Numbered from the stretch's first letter, positions 2,691-59,260 are shown. The stretch is DNA of 64,000 nucleotides from Planctomycetota bacterium (GCA_016872775.1 VGZA01000026.1:11821-75820), one strand, 5' to 3'. The notes: a model not told the origin generated them from the letters alone. Made by a program: numbers and translations.

Positions 2691-3492
2691 TCACGCGTGG
2701 CCACCCAGCCGATGTCGCAGCGGAAAGCCGTAATGGCGGCCTTCTTCAATCCGCAGCAACTCGTCGAACGGGTTCCCATTGGGCAGCCATGTTGCACCTT
2801 CCTGATCGGTGCAAAACAACTGTCCGCCTGGATCCACGGTCAGCCCGACTGGGAAACGGATTCCACTGCAGAACGGTTCATGCCGCGTCGCGCCAGACTT
2901 CAGCCGTTGAATGGTACCTCTCTGGCCGCGCGGATCGTATTGGCTTCTGCCGTCCGCGCCGATCAGGTAGGGGTTCGTGAAGTCAGCCGTTCCCAGGCCG
3001 AAGAAGATCTCGCCTCGCGCGCCGATCGCCACTCCCAAAGCGTCGACATTGTGCGGCAATTCCGCCCAGATCGTCGCGAGAATGGACTCGGATTCCGCGG
3101 TGCCATCCCCATCTTCATCCGAGATTCGGACGATCTTACCTTTGGCCGTGACCACAACTCCTTTGCCCCATGGCGAATTCGCTGGCAGGATAGACCAGCG
3201 TCGGGCGATGGTCCTGGAATGGCTGCTGCAGATCCCATCGTTATCCGCTGCCGTCGTGCCAGACGGCGATTGGCGGCGCGAGGCGCGAGCCGGGATTCGG
3301 CGGCGGAACGACGTGCCCGTTTGCGGCCGCCGCGGCTGGAATCGTTGACGCATCGAGCCACAACTCGAGGCCTTCCGAGACCGGCAGGCGCCGGTCGATC
3401 CAAGGCTCGGTTGCGGCCAGTGGAAGACCCTCGCCCCCCACGCAGGCAAGTGCGATTCCAGCGAGGTACAGGGAGCGAAACCAGCCGGTCAT
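2691..3492 (-). pseudogene. Decayed glucose/sorbosone-dehydrogenase-like (SGL/PQQ β-propeller, PVC-type dehydrogenase) gene. It has an in-frame stop, a frameshift and a C-terminal truncation.
   Basis: The signal peptide MTGWFRSLYLAGIALACVGG starts at the ATG at 3492. That frame ends VWHDGSG then TAA at 3241. The homologous sequence continues in another frame (ORF 2691..3449: NSPWGKGVVVTAKGKIVRISDEDGDGTAE...NGNPFDELLRIEEGRHYGFP) and stops well short of a full-length family member. Confidence 0.4.
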
Positions 3493-3626
3493 GCGAAACA
3501 CGATGGTTGGAGAACCGGCGCGGAATTGCATGGGCGGAATTTCGTGAAGATCGAAGAAAAAGAGCCCCACTGGCGGTCGGCCAGGGGGCTCGATATTTCT
3601 CCGCGTACGAACACGGCACGATCCGG

Positions 3627-4927
3627 TTACAGCGTGTAGCCGGCTCGGTATTCGTGCTTGATGATGCTGGCGACTTCCGGTGCGTTCGTCGCGACCATGT
3701 TCTTGGCATCCCATTCGATCTTCTTGCCGGAGGCCCAGACCGCGAGATTGCCGAGCAGGATCGTTTCCGTGAGCGGACCAGCGTAGTTCGGGAAGTTCGA
3801 CATCGCCGGTTCACCGCCGCGAATGGCATTGACCCATTCCTGGAAATGGCCAGGCGACTTCTTGAACTCCACATCGGGTTCGTCGCAATCGATGTAGTGA
3901 ATCTTCTGGTCGGCATAATCGCCTTCCGCGTACATTCGTCCCTTGTCACCGACAATCAGGGCACCGCTGTCGGTCAACTTCTTACCCTTCAACAGGGCCG
4001 GATCAACCTTCTTGCCACCGTCGTACCAAATGAACTTGATTGGGCCTCGTTCCTTGTTTGCGGGGAACTCAAAGTGGATGACACTCCAACTCGGGTACGT
4101 TTCCTTGTTGTGACCGGAAGTTTCGGCCACGACGCTTGTCGGATCGTGCAACCCCAGTGCGGCGTAAGGCATGTTGAGCGTATGGCAAGCCATGTCGCCC
4201 AGAGCGCCGGTGCCGAAGTCCCACCAGCCGCGCCACTTGAACGGGTGGTAGGCGGGATGATATGGACGCTCCGGAGCCGGGCCAAGGAATTCGTTCCAAT
4301 GGATCGACTTGGGTGTCTCGACTTTCTCCGTGGGTCGGTCGAGTCCTTGCGGCCAGACGGGACGATTGGTCCAGACGTGGACTTCGGTGACTTTTCCGAG
4401 CGTTCCGGCCTTGATCGCTGCTGCTGCCTTGCGGAGATAGCTCTGGCGGTGCCCTGATTTCCCATTTGCGTGGCGACACCCTTTTCCTTGGCGATGTTCC
4501 CGAGCGTGCGGGCTTCGAAAATCGAATGGGTCAACGGCTTCTGCGCGAAGCAGTGTTTGCCCATCCGCATTGCCATCGCGGCGGCGACGGCGTGGCAGTG
4601 GTCGGGAGTGCTGACGGTGACCGCGTCGATGTTCTTTTCGGTTTCCAGCATTTTGCGGAAATCGAAGTAGGTCTTGGCACCGCGAAAGCGGACCTTGCCT
4701 TTTTCCAACGTCGATTCATCGATATCGCAGACGGCCACGATGTTGCCGGACGAGCGAGCGTCGTTGGAATCGCTTTCGCCTTTGCCGCCGATGCCGATGC
4801 AGGCGAAATTGATCTGTTCGTTGGCCGATTTGCTCGGCGCGGCCTGTAGGCCGGCGGCGGCAAAATAGCCGGCGCCGATCACGGCCGATGTTTGCATGAA
4901 TTCGCGACGATTGGACCTTCGAGCCAT
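3627..4927 (-). pseudogene. Gfo/Idh/MocA-family oxidoreductase with a Tat signal, interrupted by one single-nucleotide frameshift near 4443.
   Basis: The N-terminal frame starts at the ATG at 4927 and reads MARRSNRREFMQTSAVIGAGYFAAA...INFACIGIGGKGESD...QMGNQGTA. A second frame carries the C-terminal part ...RKAAAAIKAGTLGKVTEVHVWTNRPVWPQG...ACHTLNMPYAALG...HEYRAGYTL* (track ORF 3627..4193). The two join if one base is restored around 4440-4448. Confidence 0.65.
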
Positions 4928-5179
4928 TTGGGGGAATCCTCCAAAAAGGGTAGGGTGGTCGCGGCGGGCCGGCCCGCCACGACGAAGCAGTAAGTTCACG
5001 AGGGCGGTCGCCGACGATTCTGGGCGGCAAAAGTCGGCCTCGACCACTCCTTCGCGGCATCTAAAGTAGCGAACTTTCGCCGCGAATTCAATCATTCGAT
5101 CGGCCCACGCCACCAAAATTGCAGCCTGGCGCCTGCGAGAATCCTTGCGAGGAGCCTTGTGAGAATCGCCAGGGGATCG

Positions 5180-6106
5180 TTACGGGAACCGGGCCAGTTC
5201 TTCCGCCGTCGGCAGCGACGGCTGGGCGCCAAGGCGAGTGACCGACAGGGCGGCGGCCCGAGCCGCATACCGGATCGAATCCCCGGCCGCCATGCCGCGC
5301 GACAAGCCGGCCGCAAAAGCCCCACAAAAGGCGTCGCCCGCCGCGGTCGTGTCGACGGCGCCCACCTTCAACGCTTCGAATCGCTCCAACCCAGCGAGCC
5401 CCGCAACCACCCCTCCTTCCTCCGCCAGCGTGACAATGGCCGATCTGCAGCCCAACTGCAACAACCGATCGGCCGCCTGTTGTGCTGCCTGCTGCGTGTT
5501 CGAAGCGTCCCGTTTGGCCGCCGCAACCCCCGACAAGACTTCCGCTTCCTGCTGGTTGGGAATGATCCAATCGACCAGGCGAGCGATCTCCGCATCGAGC
5601 ATTCCCGGCGCCGGAGCCGGATTCAGAAGGGTGACCATCCCGGCGGCCCGAGCCCGGCGCAATCCGGTCAGCACGGCCTCCTGCGGCGATTCAAAACAGC
5701 TAAGAAAAATGCCGCCCGATCGAAAAAGTTCGCCGGGCAGGTGGTCCACATCGGACGAAGTCAAATCCAGGTTGGCACCGGAAGCGACGCTGATCTGATT
5801 TCGGCCATCGTGATCCACCATGATCAGTGCGATACCTGTGGCGGAGGACGTACGTCGTACTTGGGAAACATCAATTCCCTCGCCGGAAAGGCTCGTCAAC
5901 GACTGCGTTCCAAAGTCGTCATTGCCAACCGCGCCGACGAACTTCACGGCCGTGCCTAGCCGAGCGGCAGCAACGGCCTGGTTCGCGCCCTTGCCGCCAA
6001 ATGCCCGATAGAATTCGCCGCCACCCACGGTTTCCCCTGGCTGGGGCAAGGTCCTGCCTCGAACCACGAGGTCGATATTGATCGACCCCAGGACCAACAG
6101 GGACAC
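5180..6106 (-). CDS. rbsK: Ribokinase (PfkB family).
   Basis: The 308-aa ORF carries the ribokinase signatures [15 protein letters not shown] and [17 protein letters not shown]. Confidence 0.85.
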
Positions 6107-6117
6107 GACCGACGTCC

Positions 6118-6720
6118 TTAATGGCCGCTGGGCGCGTAGTACGGATTGCGGCCCGCGGCATGATCGGTCGTGTCGAGGATGTCGCCGATTTCCGGAACAG
6201 CCGCTCGGATTGCGACTTCAACGCCTTGCCGCAAAGTGACGTTCGCCATGCCACAACCTTGGCAACCGCCGCCCATCTGCAGGAACGCGGTGTTGTCGCG
6301 CACGTCAATTAGCCGTACGACTCCACCGTGGGCCGCAACATACGGGTTGACCTGGCTCCGCAAGACCTCTTCGACCCGTGATCGCAGGACCTCGGCCGGC
6401 GGCAGGCTCGAACGTAAGTCGCGAGACACCACTTCCTGGCCCGACGCTATGGTCGATCGAATCGCCGCACCGATGGCCTTGCCAAGCGCCGGCCAGTCAT
6501 CGGATGTCGATTTGCCGATCGTGATCGCGTCGTGGGAAACGAGAACGTTCGAGATCCCCGGAATTGCGAACAAGGCTTCCGCCAGCGGCGAACCCTTCGC
6601 GGAGTCCTGGTTGGCAAAGTAATGGGCTTGATTTTCATAGACCGGCCGGTTGACCACGAATTTGCACTTGGTTGCCGAAACCGGCTCGCCCCGGATCTGG
6701 ATTGTCGCGGGATCAATCAT
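6118..6720 (-). CDS. NifU/Nfu-type Fe-S cluster scaffold protein (Nfu_N plus NifU C-terminal domain).
   Basis: The 200-aa ORF has the C-terminal motif [18 protein letters not shown] typical of the NifU C-domain and an Nfu-like N-terminal half. Confidence 0.75.
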
Positions 6721-6980
6721 CGAACAATACCTCCCTCATCACGAATCGGAACACACTCGATCAGCCGCCCCGGAACGGGCACAGGAACCCGATCGAGGCG
6801 GTTTCGACCGCAGCGAACGAGCTAGAAAATCCCCTGCGGTCACTGCTTTGCCCGTATTCTAGCGTTCCCCGCCGGCTTGGAAACACCCGCTCTCTCTTTC
6901 CACGGAAGGCATCCGGGTGGTCGGCGAGATCGGGGGAGGATGGAAGCGCGTTCAATTTTAGGCGGCAAACAGCGGGCGGT

Positions 6981-7334
6981 TCAGGCCGCACGTCGCAAGA
7001 CGTGAGTCCTGGCGGGCACCGTGGCAGCGCGTTGCAGCATGGTTCGGATGACGATTTCACCGGCCAGGTCCAGTACCTTGGCGTGTCGGGAACCGGGCAG
7101 CGATCCTTGGGAGATCATCGCTGCAATCTGCTCGTTGAGCACCGGAACGGCTCGGGTCCGAATGTAGCCGCGAGCTTCGTTCATTCCTAGCGTCGGCAGG
7201 CGAGACCGCACGCGATGCCAGACACTTTCCGCAGCCTGCACCGCTACGATTTCAGCGGTACCTTGAAGATCCGGACTGCCGCTGAGTTTCGCGAGTAACT
7301 TGCCGAACATTGTTTCGGGTCCTTTCCGTGCCAT
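6981..7334 (-). CDS. Hypothetical protein (~117 aa).
   Basis: This is the protein-like C-terminal part of track ORF 6981..7820 (MARKGPETMFGKLLAKLSG...). The upstream part of that ORF overlaps the tRNA-Cys gene and is unlikely to be coding. Confidence 0.3.
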   Translation of the reverse strand: MARKGPETMFGKLLAKLSGSPDLQGTAEIVAVQAAESVWHRVRSRLPTLGMNEARGYIRTRAVPVLNEQIAAMISQGSLPGSRHAKVLDLAGEIVIRTMLQRAATVPARTHVLRRAA

Positions 7335-7608
7335 CGAATGCCAGAAATTACCCTCCGTGTCGCGCGGCTCTGGCCATGCCGCCGCGGTGCTACTTCCCTT
7401 CCATCGAATCAGAATCCAGACGATCTTGATTCCCGGGCCGGTCGTATCAGATGGTGCAGGTACATCGAGTTTTTGGCGTGTCGCAACGGGGACCCCGGTC
7501 GGAATGTCGAGGAAATATTGCGCCTCTTCGCGCCGTCGCGCCACTCTAGTCACCGCAGTCCGCCGGAATTCACACATCGGTAATGCCTGCGCCATCCGTC
7601 GATCCCTC

Positions 7609-7637
7609 TTGACCCTTTTTTCTGAAACCCGTACTCT
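7609..7637 (+). promoter_or_regulatory. Candidate σ70-like promoter for tRNA-Cys (TTGACC-17 nt-TACTCT).
   Basis: TTGACC at 7609..7614 and TACTCT at 7632..7637 sit about 20 nt upstream of the tRNA 5' end. Confidence 0.3.
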
Positions 7638-7656
7638 CACTCCAGGTTGATGCGAC

Positions 7657-7727
7657 GGCGCCGTAGCCAAGTGGTAAGGCAGTGGATTGCAAATCCACCA
7701 TCCCCGGTTCAAATCTGGGCGGCGCCT
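7657..7727 (+). tRNA. tRNA-Cys (anticodon GCA).
   Basis: A 71-nt cloverleaf reads GGCGCCG-TA-GCC-AAGTGGTAA-GGC-A-GTGGA-TTGCAAA-TCCAC-CATC-CCCGG-TTCAAAT-CTGGG-CGGCGCC-T. The 7-bp acceptor stem, U33-GCA-A37 anticodon loop and TΨC loop are present. The discriminator is U73, as in Cys tRNAs. No CCA is encoded. Confidence 0.9.
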
Positions 7728-7841
7728 CTTTTTTCGTTTTCGCAATAGCGCGACCGGGACTTCGCCGTCGCGGCGTTGTAGCCGGTTCCTATCAATCCCC
7801 GTTGCCGTTCGGGTTGACAATGTGTCGACGAAGTAGGAAAA

Positions 7842-8489
7842 ATGCGATTCGTTGCACTCCTGACGCTAAGTTTCCTGCCGATATCATCGCTCCCCGCCAC
7901 CGCAGCGGAGTCGGACGCTCAGGAACGGGCGAGTAAAGTCATCGAGGCAGCCGGCGGCGAATCGCAGTTGTTGGATTTGTTTCGATTCCGCGAGCGTGTC
8001 CTGATTACGGATACGCCGGCGCCCCCGGTTGTGAAGGACGAGAAAGAGAATCGCACGTCCGTCGTACGGGTTGGCGGCGACTGGTGGGTCGGCAGCGATA
8101 AACGCGACAAAGACAAGGTCCGCGTATTGTGCTGGGCTTGGAGTCTCCGCATCCTGCGAGACTCGAAGTCGATCCTTCAAACGATTCCCGACATCAAAGT
8201 GGCCGACCAGCCCGCGTTCGGTCTTCGCGTGACCGGGTCCGTTAAGGATCCGATCGACTTGTACTTCGATCATGAAACGAAGCGCCTGGCAGCGATCGAT
8301 TATGACGACACGCGTCACATCTTCAGCGATTGGAAGAAGTCCGAAGATGGCCGCCACTATCCATCGCACGTCGCCGGATTCCGCTTCGAAAATCGCGCGG
8401 CAGGTACCCTCAAATCCAGGCAGTGGTATCAAACCGACATTCTTGAGCTTACGCTGTTGAAAGAACTGCCCAGCGAATTAAAGCGCTAG
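7842..8489 (+). CDS. Secreted hypothetical protein.
   Basis: The 215-aa ORF starts with the signal peptide MRFVALLTLSFLPISSLPATAAE. Confidence 0.5.
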   Translation: MRFVALLTLSFLPISSLPATAAESDAQERASKVIEAAGGESQLLDLFRFRERVLITDTPAPPVVKDEKENRTSVVRVGGDWWVGSDKRDKDKVRVLCWAWSLRILRDSKSILQTIPDIKVADQPAFGLRVTGSVKDPIDLYFDHETKRLAAIDYDDTRHIFSDWKKSEDGRHYPSHVAGFRFENRAAGTLKSRQWYQTDILELTLLKELPSELKR

Positions 8490-8662
8490 CGCCGAACCCG
8501 ACTTCAAAAGATGGCGTTGGACGGCGTAGGACGAGCGTAGGACGAGCCGCCAGGCCCGTCCAGAAGTGCGAAACGACTTCGATAAAAAGAACAATCATGT
8601 TCGATCGAGCGCGAGAGACGGGTCTGGAGACCCGTCCTACCTACTGCCGGGAGCGTTTGAGG

Positions 8663-9874: not shown

Positions 9875-9921
9875 CGCTCGCCACGGTGCCGAGCGTCAAC
9901 AAATGCGAGGAGATCGAAACG

Positions 9922-10887: not shown

Positions 10888-10891
10888 GTGG

Positions 10892-10962
10892 CAGGGGCTT
10901 CCAGCCCCTGCAAAGTGAATTGCTGGGGCAAGATGCCCCAGCCACGCCCAAGATGCCCCAGC
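10892..10962. terminator. Two GC-rich hairpins plus a 14-nt direct repeat between convergent genes.
   Basis: CAGGGGCTTCCAGCCCCTG lies at 10892..10910 and GCTGGGGCAAGATGCCCCAGC at 10922..10942. CAAGATGCCCCAGC is repeated at 10929 and 10949. There is no U-tract. Confidence 0.35.
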
Positions 10963-13948: not shown

Positions 13949-16228
13949 ATGATCCTACCGTTCTTTACGCCGCGACCTGCGACGCATGGCGACCTGTTTT
14001 GCCGTCGCTGCCGGTTGTTTCCTGGATTGATCCTGGTTTTTCTGTTCGCTGCCGGTGGTTTCGACGGCAATCTGAGGGCATCGGCGGTTGGCCAGGAAAC
14101 AACGGCGGCGGGTGACGACGACGAGCCGGCGGCCCCCAAGCGTCGGCCAGGGAGCCAGACAAAGCAGGGTGCCGAGCAGGGTGCCGAGCAGGGTGCCGAG
14201 CAGGGTGCCGAGCAGGGTGCCGACGGGCAGCGGCGTGCGCTCCCTCGACGGCGTGCCGTCGAAGATTTCCCTCGCGATTTGCAGTGGATGAACACCCAGG
14301 GCCCGCTGCGGAAGCAGGACCTCAAAGGCAAATTCGTGTTGCTCGACTTTTGGACCTATTGCTGCATCAACTGCATGCATATTCTCCCCGAGCTGAAAAA
14401 ACTCGAACAGGCATTTCCCAATGAGTTAGTCGTGATCGGGGTGCATTCGGCCAAATTTGATGGCGAAAAAGATTCGCAGAACATTTCGGACGCGATCTTG
14501 CGCTATGAAATCGAGCACCCCGTGGTCAACGATTCGGAACGGGAAATTTGGAACAATTTCGCCGTTCAGAGCTGGCCGACGATCGTGCTGCTCGATCCGG
14601 AAGGCTATGAACTGGGGCGGCACAGCGGCGAGTTTCGTTTCGAGATGCTGGCTCCGGTGTTCAAGGAGTACATTCCGATTTATCGCGAGCATGGCCTGCT
14701 GGATCTTACGCCGATCCGCTTTGACCTGCTGGCGCATCGACAGGAACCGACCCCGTTGCGTTACCCGGGAAAAGTGTTGACGGACGATGCCGGCAAGCGT
14801 GTTTTCATCGCCGACAGCAACCACAATCGGATTGTCGTTGCCGGATACGATGGTGCCTTGCAGGCGATTATTGGTTCCGGTGAACTGGGGAGCAACGATG
14901 GCTCTTTCGAATCGGCGACATTTCATCACCCGCAGGGGATGGCGCTGCACGGTTCGCAGTTGTATATCGCGGATACGGAGAACCATTTGATTCGCCGCGC
15001 CGATCTGAACCAGCGTACGGTGGTTCGCGTGGCAGGGATCGGTGAACAGGCGACGAGTGCCTGGCCGGGGATGGACCGCTATCAGGAAACGGGAGAGATT
15101 CCCAGTCGATGGGTGGGGCCGCCCTTAAAGACAGCGCTGAACAGTCCCTGGGACCTTTGGGCGCACGACGATGCGCTTTGGATCGCGATGGCGGGGCCCC
15201 ATCAGATCTGGCGCATGCCGCTGAACGGGGACGAAATTGGTCCTTTTGCCGGCAACGGCCGCGAGGATATTGTGGACGGCAGGCTGCTCCCGAAGCGTCC
15301 CTACGAACTGGGATATTCTTCGTTTGCGCAGCCGAGCGGCCTCACGTCCGATGGCAAGCGGCTGTTCGTCGCCGACAGCGAGGGAAGTTCGATTCGCGCG
15401 GTCCCGTTTGACGTTCGAGAGCGGGTGGAGACGGTGGTTGGCACGGCGCATCTGCCGGCGGGACGACTGTTTCATTTCGGGGACGTCGATGGTCCCGCCG
15501 AGGAAGCTCAGCTGCAGCACGCCTTGGGGGTCGCCTACTCCCGCGGAAAGATCTACGTGGCCGACACATACAACAACAAGATCCGTGTCGTCGACGCGAA
15601 GACCGGCACCACTTCGACGCTTGCGGGAACCGGTAAACCGGGCGGCAGCGACGATGAAGGTACGTTTGACGAGCCGGCGGGGATTGCGGTCGGTGAGGGG
15701 ATCGTCTGGGTGGCCGATACGAACAATCACCGTATTCGCAAGGTCGACCCGTCCACGGGCGAGGTCCGTTCGTTCGAGATCCCGGGGCTGACGCCCCCGG
15801 AACGAAAAGCGGTACGGCGCGAGCCCGATTTTTCGGATGCGAAGCGCATTGCCGCGGCAGCGGTGCGCCTCAAGCCGATCGACGGCCGAATCACGTTGCA
15901 GGTGCAACTGGTTTTGCCGCTCGGCTGGAAACTCAACCCGCGCGCAAGGATGGCGTATCATCTCATGGTCGACGGCGAGCAAGGCCCCTTGCAGCGAAGC
16001 GCGATGGGCGAAAAGGAACTGGATCGCCCACGCCAGGAATTTGAGGTTACGCTCCCGGTCGATGCGGCGGGAACCGATACGTTGCAAGTCGGATTTCATT
16101 TCTACTACTGCGAGGAAAACGATCAGGGGTTGTGCAAAGTCGGCAGCGTCCTGTTCACCCAGCCGATCACGGTGGCGGACGACGGCCAGGAACAGGCCAA
16201 AATCACCCATAGCGTCTCCCTGGAGTGA
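13949..16228 (+). CDS. Thioredoxin-like (redoxin/TlpA-type) plus NHL-repeat β-propeller protein (NHLRC2-like architecture).
   Basis: An N-terminal TM/signal segment (MILPFF...LILVFLFAAGG) is followed by the redoxin domain LKGKFVLLDFWTYCCINCMH...WPTIVLLDPEG. NHL repeats follow (ADSNHNRIVV, YVADTYNNKIRVVD, VWVADTNNHRIRKVD). Start chosen at the internal ATG at 13949. Confidence 0.8.
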   Translation: MILPFFTPRPATHGDLFCRRCRLFPGLILVFLFAAGGFDGNLRASAVGQETTAAGDDDEPAAPKRRPGSQTKQGAEQGAEQGAEQGAEQGADGQRRALPRRRAVEDFPRDLQWMNTQGPLRKQDLKGKFVLLDFWTYCCINCMHILPELKKLEQAFPNELVVIGVHSAKFDGEKDSQNISDAILRYEIEHPVVNDSEREIWNNFAVQSWPTIVLLDPEGYELGRHSGEFRFEMLAPVFKEYIPIYREHGLLDLTPIRFDLLAHRQEPTPLRYPGKVLTDDAGKRVFIADSNHNRIVVAGYDGALQAIIGSGELGSNDGSFESATFHHPQGMALHGSQLYIADTENHLIRRADLNQRTVVRVAGIGEQATSAWPGMDRYQETGEIPSRWVGPPLKTALNSPWDLWAHDDALWIAMAGPHQIWRMPLNGDEIGPFAGNGREDIVDGRLLPKRPYELGYSSFAQPSGLTSDGKRLFVADSEGSSIRAVPFDVRERVETVVGTAHLPAGRLFHFGDVDGPAEEAQLQHALGVAYSRGKIYVADTYNNKIRVVDAKTGTTSTLAGTGKPGGSDDEGTFDEPAGIAVGEGIVWVADTNNHRIRKVDPSTGEVRSFEIPGLTPPERKAVRREPDFSDAKRIAAAAVRLKPIDGRITLQVQLVLPLGWKLNPRARMAYHLMVDGEQGPLQRSAMGEKELDRPRQEFEVTLPVDAAGTDTLQVGFHFYYCEENDQGLCKVGSVLFTQPITVADDGQEQAKITHSVSLE
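14165..14224 (+). repeat. Perfect 12-nt tandem repeat (CAGGGTGCCGAG)×4 plus one 1-mismatch unit, encoding (GAEQ)n inside the Trx-NHL gene.
   Basis: The units are read directly at 14165, 14177, 14189 and 14201 (+14213). The protein reads KQGAEQGAEQGAEQGAEQGAD. Confidence 0.85.
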
Positions 16229-25693: not shown

Positions 25694-26250
25694 ATCGTCC
25701 TTGGCCACGTTCCGACGTATCCCCTGCGCGCACCACATCGTTCGTCCCGCTAACCACCAAGATCCTCGCGAGCATAAAAACACGCGCGTGATGGAGGAAG
25801 GATGTGGCACATTCCGTTAAAGGAAAGCTGGCATCGACCGTCCGTCGCATCCAGCCGAAGGTACTTTACGAAACCGATTCCCTTCAAGCCGGCAAGCCGA
25901 AAACTCCCCGGCCCACAAGCCGGAATTTTTCGCCCCGCTGGCTGAAGCGGAGCCCGATTTTAGTGATGCTAGCACCTCTGTCAAACCTCCTTACGACCCG
26001 CGGCCGAACTTTTTTCGCCGTCGCCTGAATTCGCGAACATTTCTCCGTAAAACTCGGTACGACACACCGGGACATTCCCGGTGTGAATTTTGGCGCGCCG
26101 GTGGAAAAGCTGTCGGCCAAACAGCGTGCCACGTACTGGAATTTTCTGCCGGCGAAATCCGAGACCGCGGCTCGCCTTCGGAACCGCTTACCTTTTCAGG
26201 ACTTTGATGAAAATCCGGCGCCGTACCCACTTGCGGAACCCCTGCCGCTG

Positions 26251-26719
26251 TTAGACCTGCAATGCCGGCTGATTCCGTGTGTCGACCGCCAGGGACATCG
26301 CCCGGCCACCGTGCCGGGACGCATACGATTGCGCGAAGATGACCATCCATTTTCCCAGGCCCGCAACCGCGCGATTCGGGCGCGATTCCCATATAGATCA
26401 GTCCCCATTGATGCGATTCATGTTCCCCCAGTAAGAGACACCCCACAGGGCGATCCTGATAACGCAGCAGGTGCCAGTGCCGATCGCCGCTGACGCCGGT
26501 TGGCCGATACCCCAGCAGAATGTCGTCGATTGCTCGAACACCATCGATCTCGGGACAATCGAGCGATCCCTGATACGTTTTCAAAATCATTTCGCGCACG
26601 CCGAATTGGCGGTCATCCGCCATCGCGATCAGCCGAACCTCGTCGGGTAACGGGCGGGCAGCTGCCGCTAATTGATCGTTAACAAGAAAGGCGACTTCAC
26701 CAACGCGAAAATACTGCAT
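26251..26719 (-). pseudogene. GNAT-family N-acetyltransferase with a probable single-base frameshift near 26340.
   Basis: The frame from the ATG at 26719 reads MQYFRVGEVAFLV...LIYMGIAPESRGCG, the start of GNAT motif A. The rest of the fold (GLGKWMVIFAQSYASRHGGRAMSLAVDTRNQPALQV*) is only in the +1 frame and ends at TAA 26251..26253. The track ORF 25991..26767 runs on into an R/P/S-rich non-protein-like tail. Confidence 0.5.
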
Positions 26720-26741
26720 TGCCCCCAGAATCGGCTCGGGA

Positions 26742-27023
26742 TCAAGCTGCCCGCCAGGCTCGACCAATCACCTGCAGCACGTTGCATCCACGCGCTACGA
26801 GGAATCGCTCGAGCTGTTGGTAGAACATTGTCGCCGCTTCCGCGCCAAGCTCAGCGTCGACGCCCGCGGGATAGACGACTCCGATCTTTCCGGGTGCAGG
26901 ATATCCATAGATGGCCCCCCGGCAGACCCCCGAATCGGAAACGATGCCACGATCCGTTCCGATCGAAAACAGTTCCAGGAGTCCTCCGTCATCAAGTTCG
27001 CCGCTCCGCAGCCGTTGAAGCAC
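26742..27023 (-). CDS. Hypothetical 93-aa ORF (GTG start) immediately after an in-frame TAG that ends a 42-aa ORF (27150..27024).
   Basis: ...ALESEGLQE-TAG-VLQRLRSGELDDGGLLELFSIGTDRGIVS...YGYPAPGKIGVVYPAGVDAE... is read in one continuous frame on the minus strand. Composition is protein-like and function is unknown. Confidence 0.3.
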   Translation of the reverse strand: MLQRLRSGELDDGGLLELFSIGTDRGIVSDSGVCRGAIYGYPAPGKIGVVYPAGVDAELGAEAATMFYQQLERFLVARGCNVLQVIGRAWRAA

Positions 27024-27273
27024 CTATTCCTGCAATCCTTCGCTTTCCAGGGCGGAAGCGGATGCGAAAACTCGCCGCAGTGCCGCCAGCCGCCGTGCCG
27101 GCGCGACATGCCGTACTTCGAAATCAATCTGGCCAGCCGGATCGGACATGCAGTTGAAGATAACCCAGGTCGCTGGAACTGGCAGCCGGGCACAGCGATT
27201 GTCTATAATGATTTTGCGATTGCTCGTTTGCTGCCGCTGTCGTGCAACCATGGAGAACCAGGAGGGCCTTACG

Positions 27274-40001: not shown

Positions 40002-40238
40002 ATGCGCGTCCATCTCAAATACTGTGCAGCTTGAGGCTACGAACGGCAAGCGGTCAGTTTGACCGCCCGCATTCTTACCGAGTTCAAGCAGCAAATCACC
40101 AGTTTCGAACTCGAACCGTCCCGCGGCGGTTGTTTCGAACTCACCGTCAATAACGGCCTGGTCTATTCCAAGCTGGCGACGGGGCAGTTCCCAGACGAGG
40201 AGGAAATGGTCGCTGCCGTTCGCAATCGAATGAAGTGA
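40002..40238 (+). CDS. selW: SelW/Rdx-family selenoprotein (78 aa) with an in-frame UGA (Sec) at 40032..40034.
   Basis: GGAG lies 9 nt upstream of the ATG. Translation reads MRVHLKYCAA-U-GYERQAVSLTARILTEFKQQITSFELEPSRGGCFELTVNNGLVYSKLATGQFPDEEEMVAAVRNRMK*. The Y-C-x-x-U-G-Y redox motif and the GG.FE..VNG.L.(W)SK...G.FP tail match SelW-like proteins. The ORF track misses it because of the TGA. Confidence 0.7.
40050..40066 (+). other. SECIS-like hairpin GCGGTCA-GUU-UGACCGC, 16 nt 3' of the UGA.
   Basis: A perfect 7-bp stem is read directly. The apical loop contains G and U, and the position fits bacterial SECIS spacing. Confidence 0.45.
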
Positions 40239-45769: not shown

Positions 45770-45802
45770 TCCCCCATCGTCGCTAACGTGCATTTCGGCG
45801 AA

Positions 45803-46388
45803 ATGACAATGGGTGCTTCGCGGATTACATGGGAATTCCCATTTGCTTTGTGCGGTTTACTGGCCTCTGCTTTGGGTTGTTCACGGACCGCGATCTTGCC
45901 GCAAGACGGTGCCGTCGCCAAGGATCCGGAGTCGGCGGATCCGCTGCAATTCCGTGGCGCTGAAGCTGGCAATGAACGGTCGATCCAGGGAGTTCGTTTC
46001 TGCTGGTGTCCGTGGGGCAGTTTCCTGATGGGCAGTCCGCCCGGCGAACTTCCAAGGAAAGCCGTATAACGGGGGCGAGCGGGGGCCTGTGCGGGGCGTA
46101 CCGCACCGGTTGGCAGCTACCCGACCAACGCCTGGGCCTGCACGACAGGCATGGGAATGCGTTCGAATGGTGCCGCGACTGGTATCATGCTCGACTCCCG
46201 GGCGGCGTCGACCCGGACCTTTATGCGGCGAAAGCGAGTGCGACCCGCAGCGAGCACGGCCACGGTCCCGGCGCGGCGGATGCTGGGCGGACGATGGTTG
46301 GCCTTGCCGATCCGCTTTTCGGCTGCGATTTGAGCCCGAACGGCGGTACGATCATATCGGTTTTCGCGTCTTGGCGGTCCGAAAATGA
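45803..46388 (+). pseudogene. Decayed formylglycine-generating-enzyme (FGE-sulfatase) family gene with 2 frameshifts and an internal deletion.
   Basis: Three consecutive frames each carry pieces of the FGE domain. The first reads GVRFCWCPWGSFLMGSPPGE, the second YRTGWQLPDQRLGLHDRHGNAFEWCRDWY, and the third RGGCWADD...YDHIGFRVLAVRK. Together they cover only ~195 aa. Confidence 0.6.
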
Positions 46389-46472
46389 CGCCTGCGGCGG
46401 CGCGGCGACCGACCTGTCGCGCCATGGAACCCCTCTGGCTGGGAATATACAGCCGTTGCCGACCGTTCGACA

Positions 46473-51408: not shown

Positions 51409-51481
51409 AAACAATTTACCATGCGAAGGCTTCGCCAGGCGGAACGGCGAACCAACCAGGAATCCTTTCGGGCGCGGATGC

Positions 51482-52414: not shown

Positions 52415-52442
52415 TCGCCGGGCGACGCGGGGAACGGTAGCG

Positions 52443-53225
52443 ATGCGAATACTGCTGACGAACGACGACGGCATTTACGCTCCGGGTCTGGCGGCATTGG
52501 AACAAGAATTACGCCACCTTGGCACCGTCGACGTGGTCGCCCCGGCTGTCGAACAGAGCGGCGTCGGCCACTCGATTACCTTTCTCAGTCCCTTGATCTG
52601 CAAGGAAGTTTTTGACGGGGCCCGCCGCCGGGGCTGGGCCGTTGAGGGAAGTCCGGCCGACTGCGTGAAAATCGGCATCTTTGAATTCTGCGAACAGCGC
52701 CCCGACCTGGTCGTGAGTGGCATCAATGGCGGCCTGAACGTCGGGATCAACGTTCTCTATTCCGGAACGGTCGCCGCCGCGATCGAGGGCGCGTTTTTCG
52801 GCATCCCCAGCGTCGCCGTTTCGCTGGAATACAACGAACATCCGCAGTTCGCAAAGGCCGCTCGCATCGCACGCCAGGTGATCGAACAACTGCTGGCCCG
52901 CAGGGATGAGCAATCGACCCTGTTCAACCTGAATATTCCCACGACCGCCCTGCAACAGGAACCCGAACTGCGCGTCGTCCCGATGGGAATCGAACGTTAT
53001 GGCGAACATTTTATCAAACGCGTCGATCCCAAAGGCCGGCCCTATTACTGGGCGACCAACGATCCGCCACCACGTCCGGGAGCGGCGGAAACCGATCTGA
53101 CCGCGATCGCCCAGGGTTGTATCACCTTGACACCGCTCCAGTACGACATGACTCGTCATCCCGCACTGGATTCGATGCGCAAATGGAACCTGAAATTGCT
53201 CGGGCCCGAGCCTTCTTTCGATTGA
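52443..53225 (+). CDS. surE: 5'/3'-nucleotidase SurE.
   Basis: MRILLTNDDGIYAPGLAAL...GVGHSITF matches the SurE family. Confidence 0.9.
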   Translation: MRILLTNDDGIYAPGLAALEQELRHLGTVDVVAPAVEQSGVGHSITFLSPLICKEVFDGARRRGWAVEGSPADCVKIGIFEFCEQRPDLVVSGINGGLNVGINVLYSGTVAAAIEGAFFGIPSVAVSLEYNEHPQFAKAARIARQVIEQLLARRDEQSTLFNLNIPTTALQQEPELRVVPMGIERYGEHFIKRVDPKGRPYYWATNDPPPRPGAAETDLTAIAQGCITLTPLQYDMTRHPALDSMRKWNLKLLGPEPSFD

Positions 53226-53301
53226 ACGGTCCACAAAGGGTCCGCCAGCCGCGTCCAACCTGCGGTTGCATTCGACGCCAGATTCAATTCACCTTGAGAC
53301 T

Positions 53302-53421
53302 ATGGAACTCCTTGTTTGTCCACATTGTCATGTTCGCGTCGCAATTACTTGCGATCGCACCTGCCCGAGTTGCCGTACCGGTCTAGGCAACTTGACGACG
53401 CGTGAAACTGCCGGGAATTAA
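53302..53421 (+). CDS. Possible 39-aa zinc-ribbon microprotein (MELLVCPHCHVRVAITCDRTCPSCRTGLGN...).
   Basis: CPxC...CPxC is spaced like Trm112/zinc-ribbon proteins and lies inside a 349-nt gap. There is no clear RBS. Confidence 0.2.
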   Translation: MELLVCPHCHVRVAITCDRTCPSCRTGLGNLTTRETAGN

Positions 53422-53574
53422 AGTAGCGGCGGTTCTGCGAATATCAACGCAACGCAGAGCGCCGCGCTGCGCGACGGCGACGGACACATTGCGATTCGGC
53501 TGCGGTTGCAACGGGGCGCCGATCGTCGATAGACTGTTATGGTCTTGTTTGGACAGTTCCGCAGGAGCCAGCTC

Positions 53575-54087
53575 ATGTACCGTCCCCGTTCGTGGATTCA
53601 ACGATCCGTTTTCGCACCGGCCGCAGTGGGTTCCGCCGCGTTGACCGTCTTGCTTGCCGTCCCGTGTGTTATCGGTTGCAAGCCGAACGCGGTGGTACCG
53701 CCCACCGCGACAGATAGTCCCCCTGCGGCCGCTTCACCGAGCGTTCCGCCGGCTGGTGCCACGGAAGATGTCAAAGCGGGTGTTGGCGTTGGCGCCCAGG
53801 GACGCAGCCTGGATGGCCATTCCGGCCTGATTGTCACTCCCGCCAAAACCCTGTTCGCCGCAAAAGAGAAAATCGTCTTCGAAATCGCCATTCCGCACGC
53901 GCTGAACCTCTACAACGCTGCCGAAGGCAATTACCCGCGTTCCCATGACGAGTTTATGGAACGGGTGGTGCGGGCAAACAACATCGTGTTGCCAAAACTC
54001 CCCGAAGGAAACAGTTACGTTTATGACCCGGAAACGTACGAACTGATGGTTCGACGGCCGGTCGCCGCGGCAAACGGGACAAAGTAA
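53575..54087 (+). CDS. Lipoprotein, hypothetical.
   Basis: AGGAG lies 7 nt upstream. The signal peptide is MYRPRSWIQRSVFAPAAVGSAALTVLLAVPCVIGC (lipobox). Confidence 0.55.
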   Translation: MYRPRSWIQRSVFAPAAVGSAALTVLLAVPCVIGCKPNAVVPPTATDSPPAAASPSVPPAGATEDVKAGVGVGAQGRSLDGHSGLIVTPAKTLFAAKEKIVFEIAIPHALNLYNAAEGNYPRSHDEFMERVVRANNIVLPKLPEGNSYVYDPETYELMVRRPVAAANGTK

Positions 54088-54477
54088 ATCCGATTTGGCG
54101 GTCCCGCGAAAACCGGAACGCTGCTTGCAGTTCCCACGTGGCACGCCAAACGTTGCCATCAACTCGATCGGCCGCAGTCCAACGGCGCTGCCTGACTGGA
54201 CGCTGCTCCCTGCGATCGTCGCGCTGCTGCTCGCATTGCCAGCCGATTCGACGTCTGCGGCGGACCCGGTGCGGATCCTGCGGGCTTTGGGCGCAGTCCC
54301 CACCAACCATGGATGGATGGCCACTACCCGAAGTACGAGCGGCATGATCGAGCGCCGTACTACTTTCCTTACCGTGAACCGTATCGATCGAATCGCGGGT
54401 ATGGAGGAGCGGACGGCGACACGGGCCTTCCCTGATCGATCCGGCAAGGGCAGCCCGGCAAAAGTGCCTGGGGTGCT

Positions 54478-55038
54478 TCACGGTCCAAACGCTTCGCTGA
54501 ACTGATCGGGGCTACCAAGCACACTGTTATGGGAATAGTTCCATAATCGCCAATCGTTGCCCTGTTTGGCAAATGTCAGCTGCACCGTTCTCGCGATATG
54601 CTGGTCCGTCACCATCCCCCCCGCATCGCCCAGCACCACCACGACATTGAAATGGGCGACGGCCTGATCCGTGGTGGGGGAACTCATTTCCACGCGCAGA
54701 TTGTTCTTCACGACGACGCGCACGAATTTATAGTTGCCCATTTCCCGGCTGGCGCGAGCGCGGACGTTCGTCGCGTCGGAATGGATGTATTCGAGTAATC
54801 CCGGGACATCGTTTTCCTGCACACGCTGGGCCATGGCCAGCACCGTGTTTTCGACGCGTTCCCGTTCGGTGACAACCTGGCGCTCGAGCACCACCAGGCC
54901 GGCGGTGATGCCCAGGGCGGCCAGTGCCAACAGCAGCATCCAACGATGACCGGTCTTCAGCCAGCCACCGACAAACAGGGCCGTGGTGAGTCCTCCCACC
55001 ATCAGCGCTGGCACGGGCGATTCCAGCCAGGAACTCAT
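54478..55038 (-). CDS. Hypothetical membrane protein.
   Basis: Track ORF with two N-terminal TM helices. It overlaps the upstream gene by ATGA. Confidence 0.45.
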   Translation of the reverse strand: MSSWLESPVPALMVGGLTTALFVGGWLKTGHRWMLLLALAALGITAGLVVLERQVVTERERVENTVLAMAQRVQENDVPGLLEYIHSDATNVRARASREMGNYKFVRVVVKNNLRVEMSSPTTDQAVAHFNVVVVLGDAGGMVTDQHIARTVQLTFAKQGNDWRLWNYSHNSVLGSPDQFSEAFGP

Positions 55039-55367
55039 TGCGGGACCTGTCCTTTCTCAAGGCGGAGCCGATAACGCAACTGCCGCCAGAACAATCCCCA
55101 GGCGATCGCAACCACCAGTGCCACACCCCAAACGATGGGGCTCAGCCCGACGATCGTTTGACCGGGAGTTGAGTAGGCGACGCTGGACTCGCCGCCCGGC
55201 GAACCGGTCTGTGCGAATTGCCGTCCTTGGAACTGCTGTTCGATTTGCGTCTGGCGTTTTCCGAATTTGGGTTGCGCCAGCGCCAGTGCCGCCAGTGCCG
55301 CTGTCCCGAAAACGCAGGCCCAGAACCAAGGTGAATCGGTCACGGGCGAGTTGCGGGAGGCGGCCAT
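55035..55367 (-). CDS. Hypothetical membrane protein.
   Basis: Track ORF with two TM helices, translationally coupled to 54478..55038. Confidence 0.4.
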   Translation of the reverse strand: MAASRNSPVTDSPWFWACVFGTAALAALALAQPKFGKRQTQIEQQFQGRQFAQTGSPGGESSVAYSTPGQTIVGLSPIVWGVALVVAIAWGLFWRQLRYRLRLEKGQVPQ

Positions 55368-55391
55368 GGCAATTCCGACGAACGGCTACGA

Positions 55392-56693
<1,302 letters not shown>

Positions 56694-56873
56694 TTATCGG
56701 TGTGCCGATCGCTTCGGGCTTGCCGATCGTCTGGTCGATTACGGTTTACCGCCGATCATGGCGGTCATGGCTGCGATTCGATCGCCGTTTGCTCTATACT
56801 GACGCAACGTATTCTGCCCGAATGACGCTCGATTGACTAGCACCAACGGAATCTAGGAGCCGAACCGACTCGA

Positions 56874-57470
56874 ATGTTCACCGGTCTAATAGAAGGTACC
56901 TGTCGCGTCGTGGAACCGCGCAACGTGGAACCTGGAATGCGATTGATCGTTGAATCCCAGGCGATGGCCAGCGAGGCCCACATCGGCGACAGCATTGCGC
57001 TCAGCGGCTGTTGCCTTACTGTCGTGCAACTTGATACCGCGCTGCTGCACTTTGAATTGGGCCCGGAAACGCTGCAAAGAACGAAACTGGGGCGCATCCA
57101 GACCGACCAGTTGTTGAACTGGGAACGCTCGTTGCGTGCCGGGGATCGACTGGGCGGCCATTTTGTCACCGGGCACGTCGATGCCACCGCCGTGCTCGAG
57201 GAGCGTCACGACGATCGCGAATGGTCGACGTTCTGGTTTCGCCTTCCCGCGTTGTGGACGCGCCAGATGGTCCCCAAAGGCTCGATCACGGTGGATGGCG
57301 TGAGCCTGACCCTGGTCGAAGTGGAATCCGAGCGATTCAGCGTCTGTTTGATCCCTCATACCCTGGCGGTAACGACGCTCGGCAGGTTAAAACGGGGTGA
57401 TACAGTGAATATCGAAACTGACCTCCTCGCCAAGTACGTCGAAAAACAGCTCGCAGGATTCCGCGCGTGA
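56874..57470 (+). CDS. ribE: Riboflavin synthase α-subunit.
   Basis: MFTGLIEGTCRVV...GDSIALSGCCLTVV, the repeated lumazine-binding half VNIETDLLAKYV and NGVSLTLVEV match riboflavin synthase. Confidence 0.9.
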   Translation: MFTGLIEGTCRVVEPRNVEPGMRLIVESQAMASEAHIGDSIALSGCCLTVVQLDTALLHFELGPETLQRTKLGRIQTDQLLNWERSLRAGDRLGGHFVTGHVDATAVLEERHDDREWSTFWFRLPALWTRQMVPKGSITVDGVSLTLVEVESERFSVCLIPHTLAVTTLGRLKRGDTVNIETDLLAKYVEKQLAGFRA

Positions 57471-58390
57471 CCACCAGTTCGCCTCGCCAGACCGTTTCCT
57501 ACTTGATGCGTCGTTTCGGCGAGGTAGGAATCCAGCCGCAGACCCGCTACGGCCAGAATTTTCTGATCGACATCAACCTGATCGACCTGCTGGTCCAGTC
57601 GGCGAATTTGAGGCCGACCGACATCGTGTTGGAAGTCGGTACCGGAACCGGCAGTTTAACCGCCAATCTTGCCGCGCGGGTGGCGGGGGTACTGACCGTC
57701 GAGATCGACCCACACCTGTTTGCCCTGGCCAGCGAAACATTGATCGATCTGCCCAACGTCACGATGCTGCAGGTCGACGCTCTGAAAAACAAAAACCGCC
57801 TGCATCCGGAATTGCTGGCGGCGCTCGAAGAACTCCGCACTCGTTACTCGCCGGGCCCCCTGAAGCTGGTCGCCAACCTGCCGTATAACATTGCCACTCC
57901 GCTGATTTCCAACCTGCTCGATCTGCCGGTCCCGCCGGAGTCGATGACGGTTACGATTCAGAAGGAGCTTGCCGAGCGGATTGCCGCTCGACCCCGAACC
58001 AAGGACTACAGCGCACTGAGTTTCTGGATTCAATCGCAGTGCGACGTCGAAATCAAACGGATCATGGCGCCGACCGTGTTCTGGCCTCGCCCCAAGGTCG
58101 AGTCGGCGATCATTCAGATCACATTCAACCCTGAATTGCGAAGCCGGATTTGCGATCTGAGCTACTGGCACGCGTTCTTGCGGGCGATGTTCTTCCATCG
58201 TCGTAAGTTCCTGCGCAGCGAACTGCTGAGCGCCTTCAAGGGTCGGTTGAGCAAGCCGGAGGTCGATGCGATCTTGGTGGAAATGGGCTTTGCTCCCGAG
58301 ACCCGGGCGGAAGAACTCGATGTCGCCGCGATGCTGCGACTGTGCGACCGCATGCGGAGCCAGTTTCCCGACTGGAAACTGCCCGGATGA
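57467..58390 (+). CDS. rsmA: 16S rRNA (adenine1518/1519-N6)-dimethyltransferase RsmA/KsgA.
   Basis: YGQNFLIDINLIDLL, VLEVGTGTGSLTANLA and VANLPYNI are RsmA motifs. Confidence 0.9.
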   Translation: MTTSSPRQTVSYLMRRFGEVGIQPQTRYGQNFLIDINLIDLLVQSANLRPTDIVLEVGTGTGSLTANLAARVAGVLTVEIDPHLFALASETLIDLPNVTMLQVDALKNKNRLHPELLAALEELRTRYSPGPLKLVANLPYNIATPLISNLLDLPVPPESMTVTIQKELAERIAARPRTKDYSALSFWIQSQCDVEIKRIMAPTVFWPRPKVESAIIQITFNPELRSRICDLSYWHAFLRAMFFHRRKFLRSELLSAFKGRLSKPEVDAILVEMGFAPETRAEELDVAAMLRLCDRMRSQFPDWKLPG

Positions 58391-58490
58391 TGGCGAACCG
58401 GTCGGACCTGAACCGATCCGAACCAATCCATCCGCGCCTTGCGGCGGCGTCGCCCATGAGTAGACTTACCGCTGGGAGCGTTGTCCACGC

Positions 58491-58590
58491 GGAAGTGCCT
58501 GCACACCTGGTGGTGGCCACAGTCTTCAAAACTGCTGTGCCGTACGATAACCGTGCGGCAGGTGGGTTCGATTCCCATGCACTTCCGCCA
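58491..58590 (+). tRNA. selC: tRNA-Sec (selC), anticodon UCA, with CCA encoded.
   Basis: The 100-nt gene has an 8-bp acceptor stem (GGAAGTGC / GCACTTCC). The anticodon loop is CTTCAAA, identical to E. coli selC. A long extra arm (GCCGTACG-ATAAC-CGTGCGGC, 8 bp) is present. The T-arm is GTGGG-TTCGATT-CCCAT (5 bp), giving the 8/5 bacterial Sec structure. Discriminator G plus CCA at 58588..58590. One irregular position (bulged C) lies in the anticodon stem. Confidence 0.8.
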
Positions 58591-58642
58591 TTTAATTGCG
58601 GCAATTCGCGTAGACTCGTCGCGATGGGCGCAAGCCACGGAG

Positions 58643-58830
58643 TCATCTTGCGTTGGGTGGGCTGACTGCGATTCGCCGCCATTCCGCGTCCGGGGCCGCA
58701 GCGATGATCTTGCTTGTTTCATCCCGTGTCACGAAGTATTGCCGCGCAGCATTCCCTGCCGGCGCGGAAACCAGCTTGGCAAATGGGTTGACGGAAACTA
58801 TTTCGTGTTCCACGGCCCGCGCGAAAAGTC
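58643..58830 (-). pseudogene. Remnant of a tyrosine recombinase/phage-integrase gene (N-terminal core-binding segment only) abutting tRNA-Sec.
   Basis: The C-terminal part of track ORF 58643..58984 reads [53 protein letters not shown]. This fits the integrase pattern NP..k.p.....r.lT.eE...l..A....w. The catalytic domain, which would lie toward and over the tRNA, is absent. Confidence 0.4.
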
Positions 58831-59260
58831 CGCGTCTTGAACGAACTGGGGCTGGGATGTCTGAAGCTGGGACATCCATCGACGATTCTCTCCGGGGGCG
58901 AAGCGCAACGGGTGAAGCTGGCCGGGGAACTGGGCAAAATGACGCGTGGCAAGCACAACCTGTATTTGCTGGACGAACCGACAACGGGCTTGCATTTTGC
59001 CGACATTGACCGGCTGCTGATCAGTCTGAATCGGGTGGTGGACCACGGTCATTCCGTGGTGGTGATTGAACACAATCTGGACGTGGTCAAGACCGCCGAT
59101 TATGTGTTCGACCTGGGGACGGAGGGCGGGCATAACCGGGGGCTGCCTGATTGCCTGCGGCCCGCCGGAGGCGGTCGCTGCTTGCCCGGTATCCCATGCC
59201 GGACGGTTCCTTACGGACTACCTGGACCGCCAGTTTGCCCGATCGTCAGGCAACCCATAA
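58791..59260 (+). pseudogene. uvrA: UvrA C-terminal fragment (last ~150 aa of excinuclease ABC subunit A), frameshifted, with no upstream body.
   Basis: The frame after TGA 58788 reads [110 protein letters not shown]. This matches the UvrA signature II/Walker B/H-loop. The terminal [29 protein letters not shown] is in a different frame (track ORF 59066..59260). Confidence 0.6.

Follow-up and report, generated by a model that had tools for sequence, protein, structure and literature searches.

The 64,000-nucleotide stretch analysed here (Planctomycetota bacterium, GCA_016872775.1, VGZA01000026.1:11821-75820; referred to as a whole as the window) carried approximately 63 gene-like loci. These comprised about 57 intact protein genes, six gene relics whose lesions are fixed in the population, and one Gfo/Idh/MocA gene that is broken in the window only. 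The relics derive from a long gene with Laminin_G_3, propeller, cytochrome c and ThuA domains, a tandem-GNAT acetyltransferase gene, an FGE-sulfatase-domain gene, a gene for a small secreted protein, a uvrA-like gene and an integrase gene (Table 1). The initial annotation of this DNA had named six decayed loci, all of which were found at or near where it had placed them, and the secreted-protein relic was found in addition. The core genes that it had listed as intact (ffh, dnaA, guaA/B, eno, selA/B and the 3.4-kb FAAL gene) were called at full length with the expected Pfam domains.

Table 1. Relics, the broken Gfo/Idh/MocA gene and associated features in the window.
Feature	Position	Strand	Basis or remark
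Relic of 1454-aa Laminin_G_3 + DUF7133/GSDH propeller + cytochrome c + ThuA gene (PVC-type haem-binding family)	2612..3531	-	Pfam, NCBIfam, sister synteny, tblastn
Pseudogene of 307-aa tandem-GNAT acetyltransferase	26188..27035	-	Joined-frame Pfam, sister orthologue, lesion maps
Pseudogene of 284-aa FGE-sulfatase-domain protein	45803..46388	+	Joined-frame Pfam, sister gene, lesion map
Relic of 221-aa secreted protein, absent from the earlier list	54143..54435	+	Sister open reading frame, nucleotide alignment; between h170 and h186
Integrase fragment, ~60 codons, SAM-like/catalytic domain junction, both gene ends gone	58646..58831	-	BLASTP, PHROG; boundary uncertain by ~30 bp
UvrA C-terminal stub, last ~140 of ~945-970 residues	58807..59260	+	PDB 2r6f_A, NCBIfam UvrA
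Gfo/Idh/MocA (glycoside 3-dehydrogenase-like, TAT signal), broken in the window only	3627..4926	-	One G lost after 4443, codon ~161 of 433
tRNA-Sec (anticodon TCA)	58491..58590	+	ARAGORN; Rfam RF01852, 66.9 bits; both island scraps adjoin
Uncalled Rdx (SelW/SelT-like) selenoprotein gene	40002-40238	+	Pfam PF10262, E = 3.7e-13, full model

The window was aligned base by base with contigs of the same population taken from ENA, JGI and Logan assemblies of many samples. The contigs were found by searching for exact copies of seven window proteins, those of selA, ffh, nifU and eno among them, and were spread over many independent metagenome assemblies, which included one from ENA with a contig of 448 kb, eight from JGI and nine Logan runs. 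A 73-aa zinc-ribbon protein, looked up in the same way, led to this population only, and the matches listed in a metagenome-contig scan with SurE contained neither this population nor the sister species described below. The assemblers differed across the samples, being metaSPAdes for JGI, a MEGAHIT-style assembler with k141 contigs for ENA, and that of Logan. The JGI assemblies appear to be the Lake Tanganyika series, in which Illumina 2x150 reads were assembled with metaSPAdes one sample at a time (PMC8245535). All population contigs were 99.85-100% identical to the window. A scan of the GTDB species representatives placed the organism in the Pirellulales, family Pirellulaceae, with a SurE identity of at most 75% to the nearest representative. 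Intact reference orthologues were supplied by a sister species (contigs ERZ27250187 k141_379905, ERZ27250211 k141_706196 and Ga0233425_10000362), which was reached via homologue and cluster look-ups. Gene order was common to the sister and the window over most of the regions compared; the proteins were 73-100% identical, the synonymous divergence (dS) was approximately 0.8, and the ratio of nonsynonymous to synonymous divergence (dN/dS) of intact genes was 0.01-0.22.

Six relics, that is, all of the damaged loci but Gfo/Idh/MocA, showed the same lesions in five to seven independent assemblies, each of which covered the locus end to end without an indel. An intact orthologue was present at the same syntenic position in the sister for four of them (the GNAT, FGE, 1454-aa and 221-aa secreted-protein genes). 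No intact syntenic sister orthologue was at hand for the UvrA stub and the integrase scrap, and the sister likewise has a UvrA stub only. The disabling lesions were mapped against the sister orthologues at both the protein and the nucleotide level, and every relic matched a functional protein family, the match of the integrase scrap being weak. The six loci are cases of real decay fixed in the population, as the initial annotation had argued for the multi-lesion loci. Frame-changing differences among the population contigs were very few, namely the G after 4443, some single-contig indels and a 24-bp repeat at 14163-14186. This repeat (2 x 12 bp, AGCAGGGTGCCG) is an in-frame copy-number polymorphism in a thioredoxin/NHL-repeat gene, and its extra copies are present in the window and absent from the ENA contig and one JGI contig.

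The first relic in the window is that of the 1454-aa gene. An open reading frame (ORF) at 2691-3488(-) matched Pfam DUF7133 (5e-5) and also GSDH within one frame, as well as NCBIfam TIGR02604, the PVC-type haem-binding CxxCH family (1e-9, model positions 82-203 of 367). Its homologues were DUF7133 proteins of about 50% identity, some of them with Laminin_G_3. In the sister, an intact 1454-aa gene lies directly downstream of the orthologous Gfo/Idh/MocA gene and encodes Laminin_G_3 (residues 142-293), DUF7133/GSDH (369-660), cytochrome c (1047-1087) and ThuA (1250-1423) domains. The tblastn alignment of this protein with the window recovered three pieces, corresponding to aa 1-117 (3531-3181, 71% identity), aa 402-562 (3194-2712, 87%) and aa 1420-1452 (2713-2615, 73%). 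As each piece lies in a different frame, two frame-changing internal deletions of ~852 and ~2571 bp were assigned; 21% of the gene is kept and 79% removed. The relic also carries a nonsense change, CAA>TAA, at 3241-3243, where the sister has Gln, and showed no indels across five assemblies. An in-frame stop, a frameshift and a truncation had been proposed for this locus under the name SGL-like. The stop is there, whereas the other two are in fact the pair of internal deletions, the 3' tail of the gene having survived. The fragments were called as separate small ORFs with weak Pfam matches or none, and gaps in the accession series suggest that they were deposited as 'hypothetical proteins'.

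At the GNAT locus, the Pfam score was 13.9 bits in a single frame, covering half of the domain, and 44.2 bits when three frames were joined (model positions 32-116 of 116). The closest homologue, a 307-aa tandem-GNAT protein (P0001; 53% identity, E = 9e-100), is encoded in the sister between the PDZ protease gene and dnaA, in the same place as the relic. The lesions found were two stops (TAG at codon 4, 27025-27027, and TAT>TAA at a conserved Tyr, 26251-26253), two frameshifts (+4 at 26764-26767 and +1 at 26359) and an 81-bp in-frame gap at ~26958, with no indels across seven assemblies. The relic was only 45-58% identical to the sister protein, compared with 74-98% for the flanking genes. Given these several lesions and the low identity relative to the flanks, the locus is therefore not a mere assembly indel. 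It had been described as a single-indel case near 26340 and grouped with Gfo/Idh/MocA as a possible assembly error; the indel proved to be the insertion at 26359, accompanied by the other lesions, and the caution was warranted for Gfo/Idh/MocA alone, the lesion of which is private to one contig.

Two further candidates at this place were rejected. An N-terminal extension of the GNAT pseudogene (27149-27036), initially joined to it, is absent from the orthologue. The sister ORF h189 was not accepted as a gene; its match in the window (25804-26361) contains an in-frame stop and overlaps both the conserved region upstream of dnaA and the antisense strand of the GNAT pseudogene. The segment 25739-25990 upstream of dnaA showed strong nucleotide conservation with the sister, giving a spurious 'protein' match with an in-frame stop, and probably holds the dnaA promoter or origin-related sequence.

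The FGE pseudogene gave Pfam scores of 22.8 and 21.4 bits in single frames, and 74.3 bits as one alignment over the C-terminal 105 model positions when three frames were joined. The family is highly conserved, with homologues of ~300 aa that are ~80% identical over the C-terminal half; in the sister, the interval from selA to the gene after it holds an intact 284-aa gene. Compared with that gene, the relic has lost aa 58-163 in an out-of-frame deletion of ~318 bp (junction 46044-46060), along with 1 bp after 46092, 1 bp after 46133 and 7 bp after 46260; no indels were seen across six assemblies. The internal deletion proposed earlier was thus present, and in place of the two frameshifts given with it there are three frame changes in the C-terminal half. 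The in-frame TAA at 46067-46069 was not counted as a separate lesion, because its frame is read past the deletion junction. The FGE region was in addition a hot spot of polymorphism, with six sites of single-nucleotide polymorphism (SNP) in 743 bp versus 0.56 expected (P = 3e-5).

The newly found relic corresponds to a 221-aa secreted protein of the sister, the ORF of which (L194 16465-17130(+)) follows surE/h170 and whose conserved core recurs, at the same position, in more than 50 loci of the Pirellulales. The start codon has changed from ATG to ACG in the window (54143-54145), and a deletion of ~360 bp takes out the core 'ADWITxPSYYTHD...WGPPFAG' and shifts the frame. Only aa 1-40 and 163-221 are kept, the latter being 78% identical to the sister, and no indel difference was found in any population locus aligned there. 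Three antisense ORFs, at 53954-54481(-) (175 aa), at sister L194 16342-17139(-) (265 aa) and at 46117-46425(-) (102 aa), were rejected as genes and regarded as shadows, lying over the secreted-protein relic, its sister orthologue and the FGE relic, respectively. Gene finders call such long antisense ORFs over relics in these GC-rich genomes; one, at 58387-58665(-), lies over tRNA-Sec. In the sister, the plus-strand gene for the secreted protein itself was left uncalled and the 265-aa antisense ORF was called there.

The two remaining relics adjoin the tRNA-Sec gene, which keeps its adjacency to ksgA in relatives. The integrase fragment starts 56 bp past the 3' end of the tRNA and reads towards it. 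It aligned with aa 167-221 of an integrase that lies beside tRNA-Sec in a relative (L041), at 31% identity, and the ORF of that integrase has Phage_int_SAM_5 and Phage_integrase domains; the best PHROG was phrog_1, integrase. The UvrA stub matched residues 819-958 of PDB 2r6f_A (E = 4e-75), in an alignment running straight across the repaired junction, and positions 804-942 of 943 of the NCBIfam UvrA model. An additional C at 59136 shifts its last 40 codons, and no indels were seen across six assemblies. The two loci had been listed at first as an integrase stub and a C-terminal UvrA stub with a frameshift. The sister stub is ~36 codons shorter at the 5' end, is without the extra C, and forms an open 106-aa ORF. 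The distance from tRNA-Sec to the FAAL gene was 892 bp in the window, 93 bp in another relative (L049) and 1.3 kb in the sister; the insertion is absent in L049, and the sister content differs except for the UvrA stub. We read the 892-bp interval as the remnant of an integrated element.

The ~760 bp on the 3' side of tRNA-Sec in the sister (L197 9190-9948), which include a 60-aa ORF, were unrelated to the integrase scrap of the window. As this stretch is unrelated and L041 carries a full integrase at the same site, it seems that in this group tRNA-Sec has served as an insertion site, and that inserts there have been eroded, time and again. The gene that follows, at 59483-62869(+), codes for 1128 aa in which AMP-binding (FAAL-like), carrier-protein and class I/II aminotransferase domains are fused. 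Its identity with the sister copy is 93%, and its position directly after ksgA and tRNA-Sec is conserved in several Pirellulales. A candidate attachment (att) site at 59337-59355 was rejected, its score of 11 being reached by 46% of random windows.

The Gfo/Idh/MocA locus behaved differently from the six relics, whose lesions recur in more than one assembly. The sequence is AGCTCTGG in the window and AGCTGCTGG in seven other assemblies, so that exactly one G is missing from the window, as had been noted near this position. In all seven (7/7), the G restores an intact 433-aa Gfo/Idh/MocA protein with a twin-arginine signal, which matched NCBIfam NF058561, a glycoside 3-dehydrogenase model, over its full length (1e-118). 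The sister protein matched the window in two frames, the pieces being 94-97% identical. The intact protein was on record on six contigs, none from NCBI, whereas the 188-aa ORF of the 3' fragment was on exactly one; a protein look-up with the predicted 312-aa 5' fragment returned nothing on record. The lesion, private to one contig, is either an artefact or a rare allele. A second disruption limited to a single assembly was seen in the sister, where one assembly (ERZ27250211) has the DUF6690 gene (L109 3435-4547) called as 284 + 82 aa and two others have it whole, with 370 aa, in parallel with the Gfo/Idh/MocA case.

Selective constraint on the relics was compared with that on the intact genes. 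The ratio of divergence at codon positions 1+2 to that at position 3 was 0.33-0.45 for the relics and 0.12-0.34 for nine intact neighbours, and dN relative to the sister was 0.12-0.37 and 0.01-0.16, respectively, with overlapping ranges in both comparisons. Within the population, SNP sites per kb amounted to 0.50 in coding sequences, 1.54 in intergenic DNA and 1.59 in relics, approximately three times the coding value, on small counts. The direction of divergence and polymorphism fits relaxed selection in the relics, with the overlap of ranges as stated and with a UvrA stub that looks constrained. DNA was lost on balance relative to the sister, from 4.4 kb to 0.93 kb of coding sequence in the 1454-aa gene, from 852 to ~475 bp in the FGE gene and from 666 to 294 bp in the secreted-protein gene. 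The lesions scored in the relics consisted of eight deletions versus three insertions.

The decayed loci made up approximately 9.5-11% of the gene-like loci in the window. Relic DNA accounted for ~5% of the window with the secreted-protein relic included and for 4.6% with the five relics scored, and the coding density without the relics was 81.6%. For comparison, pseudogenes make up 1-5% of gene-like sequences as a background (Liu et al. 2004, PMC522871). The binomial probability of at least six decayed loci among 62 was 0.01 at a background of 3% and 0.09 at 5%. The proposed 'unusually high density' is weakly supported, and plausible for this window; the excess is modest, and the figure is not to be extended to the genome, of which the part read comprised the window and about 7 kb of flanks. 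The age structure is more telling than the relic count. In Salmonella, 346 of 378 pseudogenes carried a single lesion and the majority were strain-specific (Kuo & Ochman 2010, PMC2916853), whereas here five of the six relics show more than one lesion or have lost large segments, and each of the six is fixed. Relics of sister-specific genes (PQQ474, Pkinase-TPR, ECF sigma and others) were not detected in the window. The 204-aa call at 6981-7595 was considered as a pseudogene and rejected, because only a 109-aa core is conserved in frame.

A six-frame Pfam scan of eight intergenic gaps gave no further relic and only the Rdx-family selenoprotein gene. Its product starts with MRVHLKYCAA-U-GYERQ, the in-frame TGA at 40032-40034 falling in a CxxU motif. 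The gene was left uncalled by the gene finders in every assembly and lies less than 20 kb from selB, selA and tRNA-Sec. A hairpin resembling a selenocysteine insertion sequence (SECIS), with a 7-bp stem, begins 16 nt after the TGA, and its fold energy was unexceptional (z = -1.2). The Rfam scan of the window reported two tRNAs and nothing else.

What is seen in the window is very probably ordinary bacterial gene decay, with relics of several ages, within a single wild population of a Pirellulales planctomycete not yet in culture, and other explanations were weighed against it. It is highly improbable that the frameshifts and stops at large are contig errors and that the genes are intact in the cells. 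The Gfo/Idh/MocA lesion does behave in this way, its truncated ORF occurring on one contig only, and the split of DUF6690 in one sister assembly is a similar one-off event. The other six loci, however, carry identical lesions in assemblies from different samples and assemblers, assembly errors do not typically take the form of 318-2571 bp deletions or of several lesions in one gene, and the relics show extra divergence and extra polymorphism. Recoding, with in-frame stops read as selenocysteine and frame changes as programmed frameshifts, is brought to mind by the presence of selA, selB and tRNA-Sec in the window together with a selenoprotein gene using an in-frame TGA. The stops in the relics are TAA or TAG and not TGA, and therefore not selenocysteine codons; TAA replaces a conserved Tyr in the GNAT relic and a Gln in the LamG relic. 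Several frame changes and large deletions that remove catalytic domains likewise disagree with recoding, which is effectively refuted by the codon identities and the deletions and was given next to no credence.

Retained function in some relics as shortened genes or regulatory DNA is also quite improbable, though less so than the two explanations above, and concerns chiefly the UvrA stub as a small ORF or as a promoter or leader of the FAAL gene. Between the window and the sister (58807-59482 vs the L197 9948-10513 region), the divergence of the stub was 0.149/0.044/0.395 at codon positions 1/2/3 and thus concentrated at third positions. The 220 nt from the stub stop to the FAAL start were only 20% diverged, compared with ~36-50% at third positions in neighbouring genes, and the ORF of the sister stub is open. 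The stub and the stretch after it thus both look constrained, despite the truncation of the gene in either species. On the other hand, the stub in the window population carries a fixed +1 frameshift and lacks the Walker A motif, and the sister stub additionally lacks the signature motif. Moreover, the same pattern would arise without function if a long-lived paralogue had been truncated recently and independently, or if the canonical uvrA had converted the stub, and these two stand beside residual function as candidate explanations. The alternative of a lineage-wide state, in which genes are lost fast or purged slowly through relaxed selection, a small effective population or genome reduction, is unlikely, yet the least so of those considered. 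It would agree with the local excess of decayed loci over the background, with the contrast between multi-lesion relics here and single-lesion ones in Salmonella, with the coding density, and with four losses specific to the window lineage, no reciprocal loss (a gene intact in the window and decayed in the sister) having been found in the sister loci examined. This asymmetry is, however, biased, because the sister loci were chosen around relics, and the window is a single, pre-selected one. No transposase domain was detected in the window gene calls or in the six-frame gap scan, that is, no insertion sequence (IS) element or transposase, and the core genes are under strong purifying selection (dN/dS 0.01-0.2).

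Ordinary gene decay is a process of an already known kind with an ordinary mechanism; what is unusual is that most of the relics are old, with several lesions each. Four accessory chromosomal genes, encoding the 1454-aa LamG/propeller/cytochrome-c/ThuA protein, the tandem-GNAT acetyltransferase, the FGE-sulfatase-domain protein and the small conserved secreted protein, were very probably inactivated in the window lineage after its split from the sister. They were subsequently eroded by small indels, point mutations and, above all, deletions. Beside tRNA-Sec, the integrase scrap and the tail of a uvrA-like gene are probably the leftover of an integrated element, and the one-base deletion in Gfo/Idh/MocA is an assembly or consensus error or else a rare, very young null allele. 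We infer that the lost genes were dispensable and that their erosion was neutral with a deletion bias; the relative ages of the relics are likewise inferred.

Several observations weigh against this interpretation or parts of it. The excess in density rests on one window that had been singled out beforehand. The dN/dS of the relics (0.17-0.26) is raised only modestly, and the relic ages are rough, because the genes were still functional while they built up the greater part of their divergence from the sister. The Gfo/Idh/MocA lesion lies outside any homopolymer, an unusual context for an Illumina error, and a real rare allele is therefore possible. As to the island, the evidence for the integrase is weak piece by piece (E = 8e-7 in one pairwise comparison and E = 0.016 in PHROGs), and a direct att repeat of the tRNA-Sec 3' end was not shown at the far boundary. 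The coding-type divergence of the UvrA stub also misfits a long-dead relic shared by the two species.

At this locus the erosion of pseudogenes can be followed on dated examples in an uncultured bacterium that lives free in the wild, with an intact sister and population data from many samples. It is rather doubtful that the window is representative, that is, that a free-living freshwater planctomycete carries ~10% of old, multi-lesion, fixed pseudogenes throughout its genome. If it were, wrecks would be purged much more slowly, or genes lost faster, than in the rapid-purging picture drawn from enteric bacteria, and the UvrA stub would be a separate puzzle of gene conversion or of parallel truncation in two species. 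A genome-wide count confirming the local figure would thus bear on the speed at which dead genes are purged in free-living bacteria. The value of these findings is mostly practical. The FGE and secreted-protein relics carry only shadow or fragment ORF calls in the assemblies examined. The Gfo/Idh/MocA frameshift is the only lesion that an annotation pipeline would readily flag, yet it is the one likeliest to be an artefact or a rare allele.

The arrangement at tRNA-Sec resembles known island remnants at tRNA genes in having a tyrosine-integrase fragment directly 3' of the tRNA and reading towards it, a cargo fragment beside it, an 'empty' site in the relative L049 and a full integrase at the same tRNA-Sec in L041. 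It differs in that an att repeat was not shown, that only ~0.65 kb of recognisable gene remnant is left, and that the uvrA-like cargo evolved like a functional gene until recently. Deletional bias and the resulting erosion of non-functional DNA in bacteria were reportedly described by Mira, Ochman and Moran in 2001. The net loss of DNA at every relic relative to the sister agrees with this; the bacterium here is a free-living uncultured planctomycete and not a host-restricted one, a difference of setting and none in kind. As in the surveys of pseudogenes in situ (PMC522871, PMC2916853), disabled genes lie between intact conserved neighbours with the core genes untouched, the lesions are frameshifts, nonsense changes and mostly deletions, and large accessory families and mobile-element genes are over-represented. 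What sets the window apart from these surveys is that most of its relics are old, multi-lesion and fixed, and that their local share of ~10% lies above the background.

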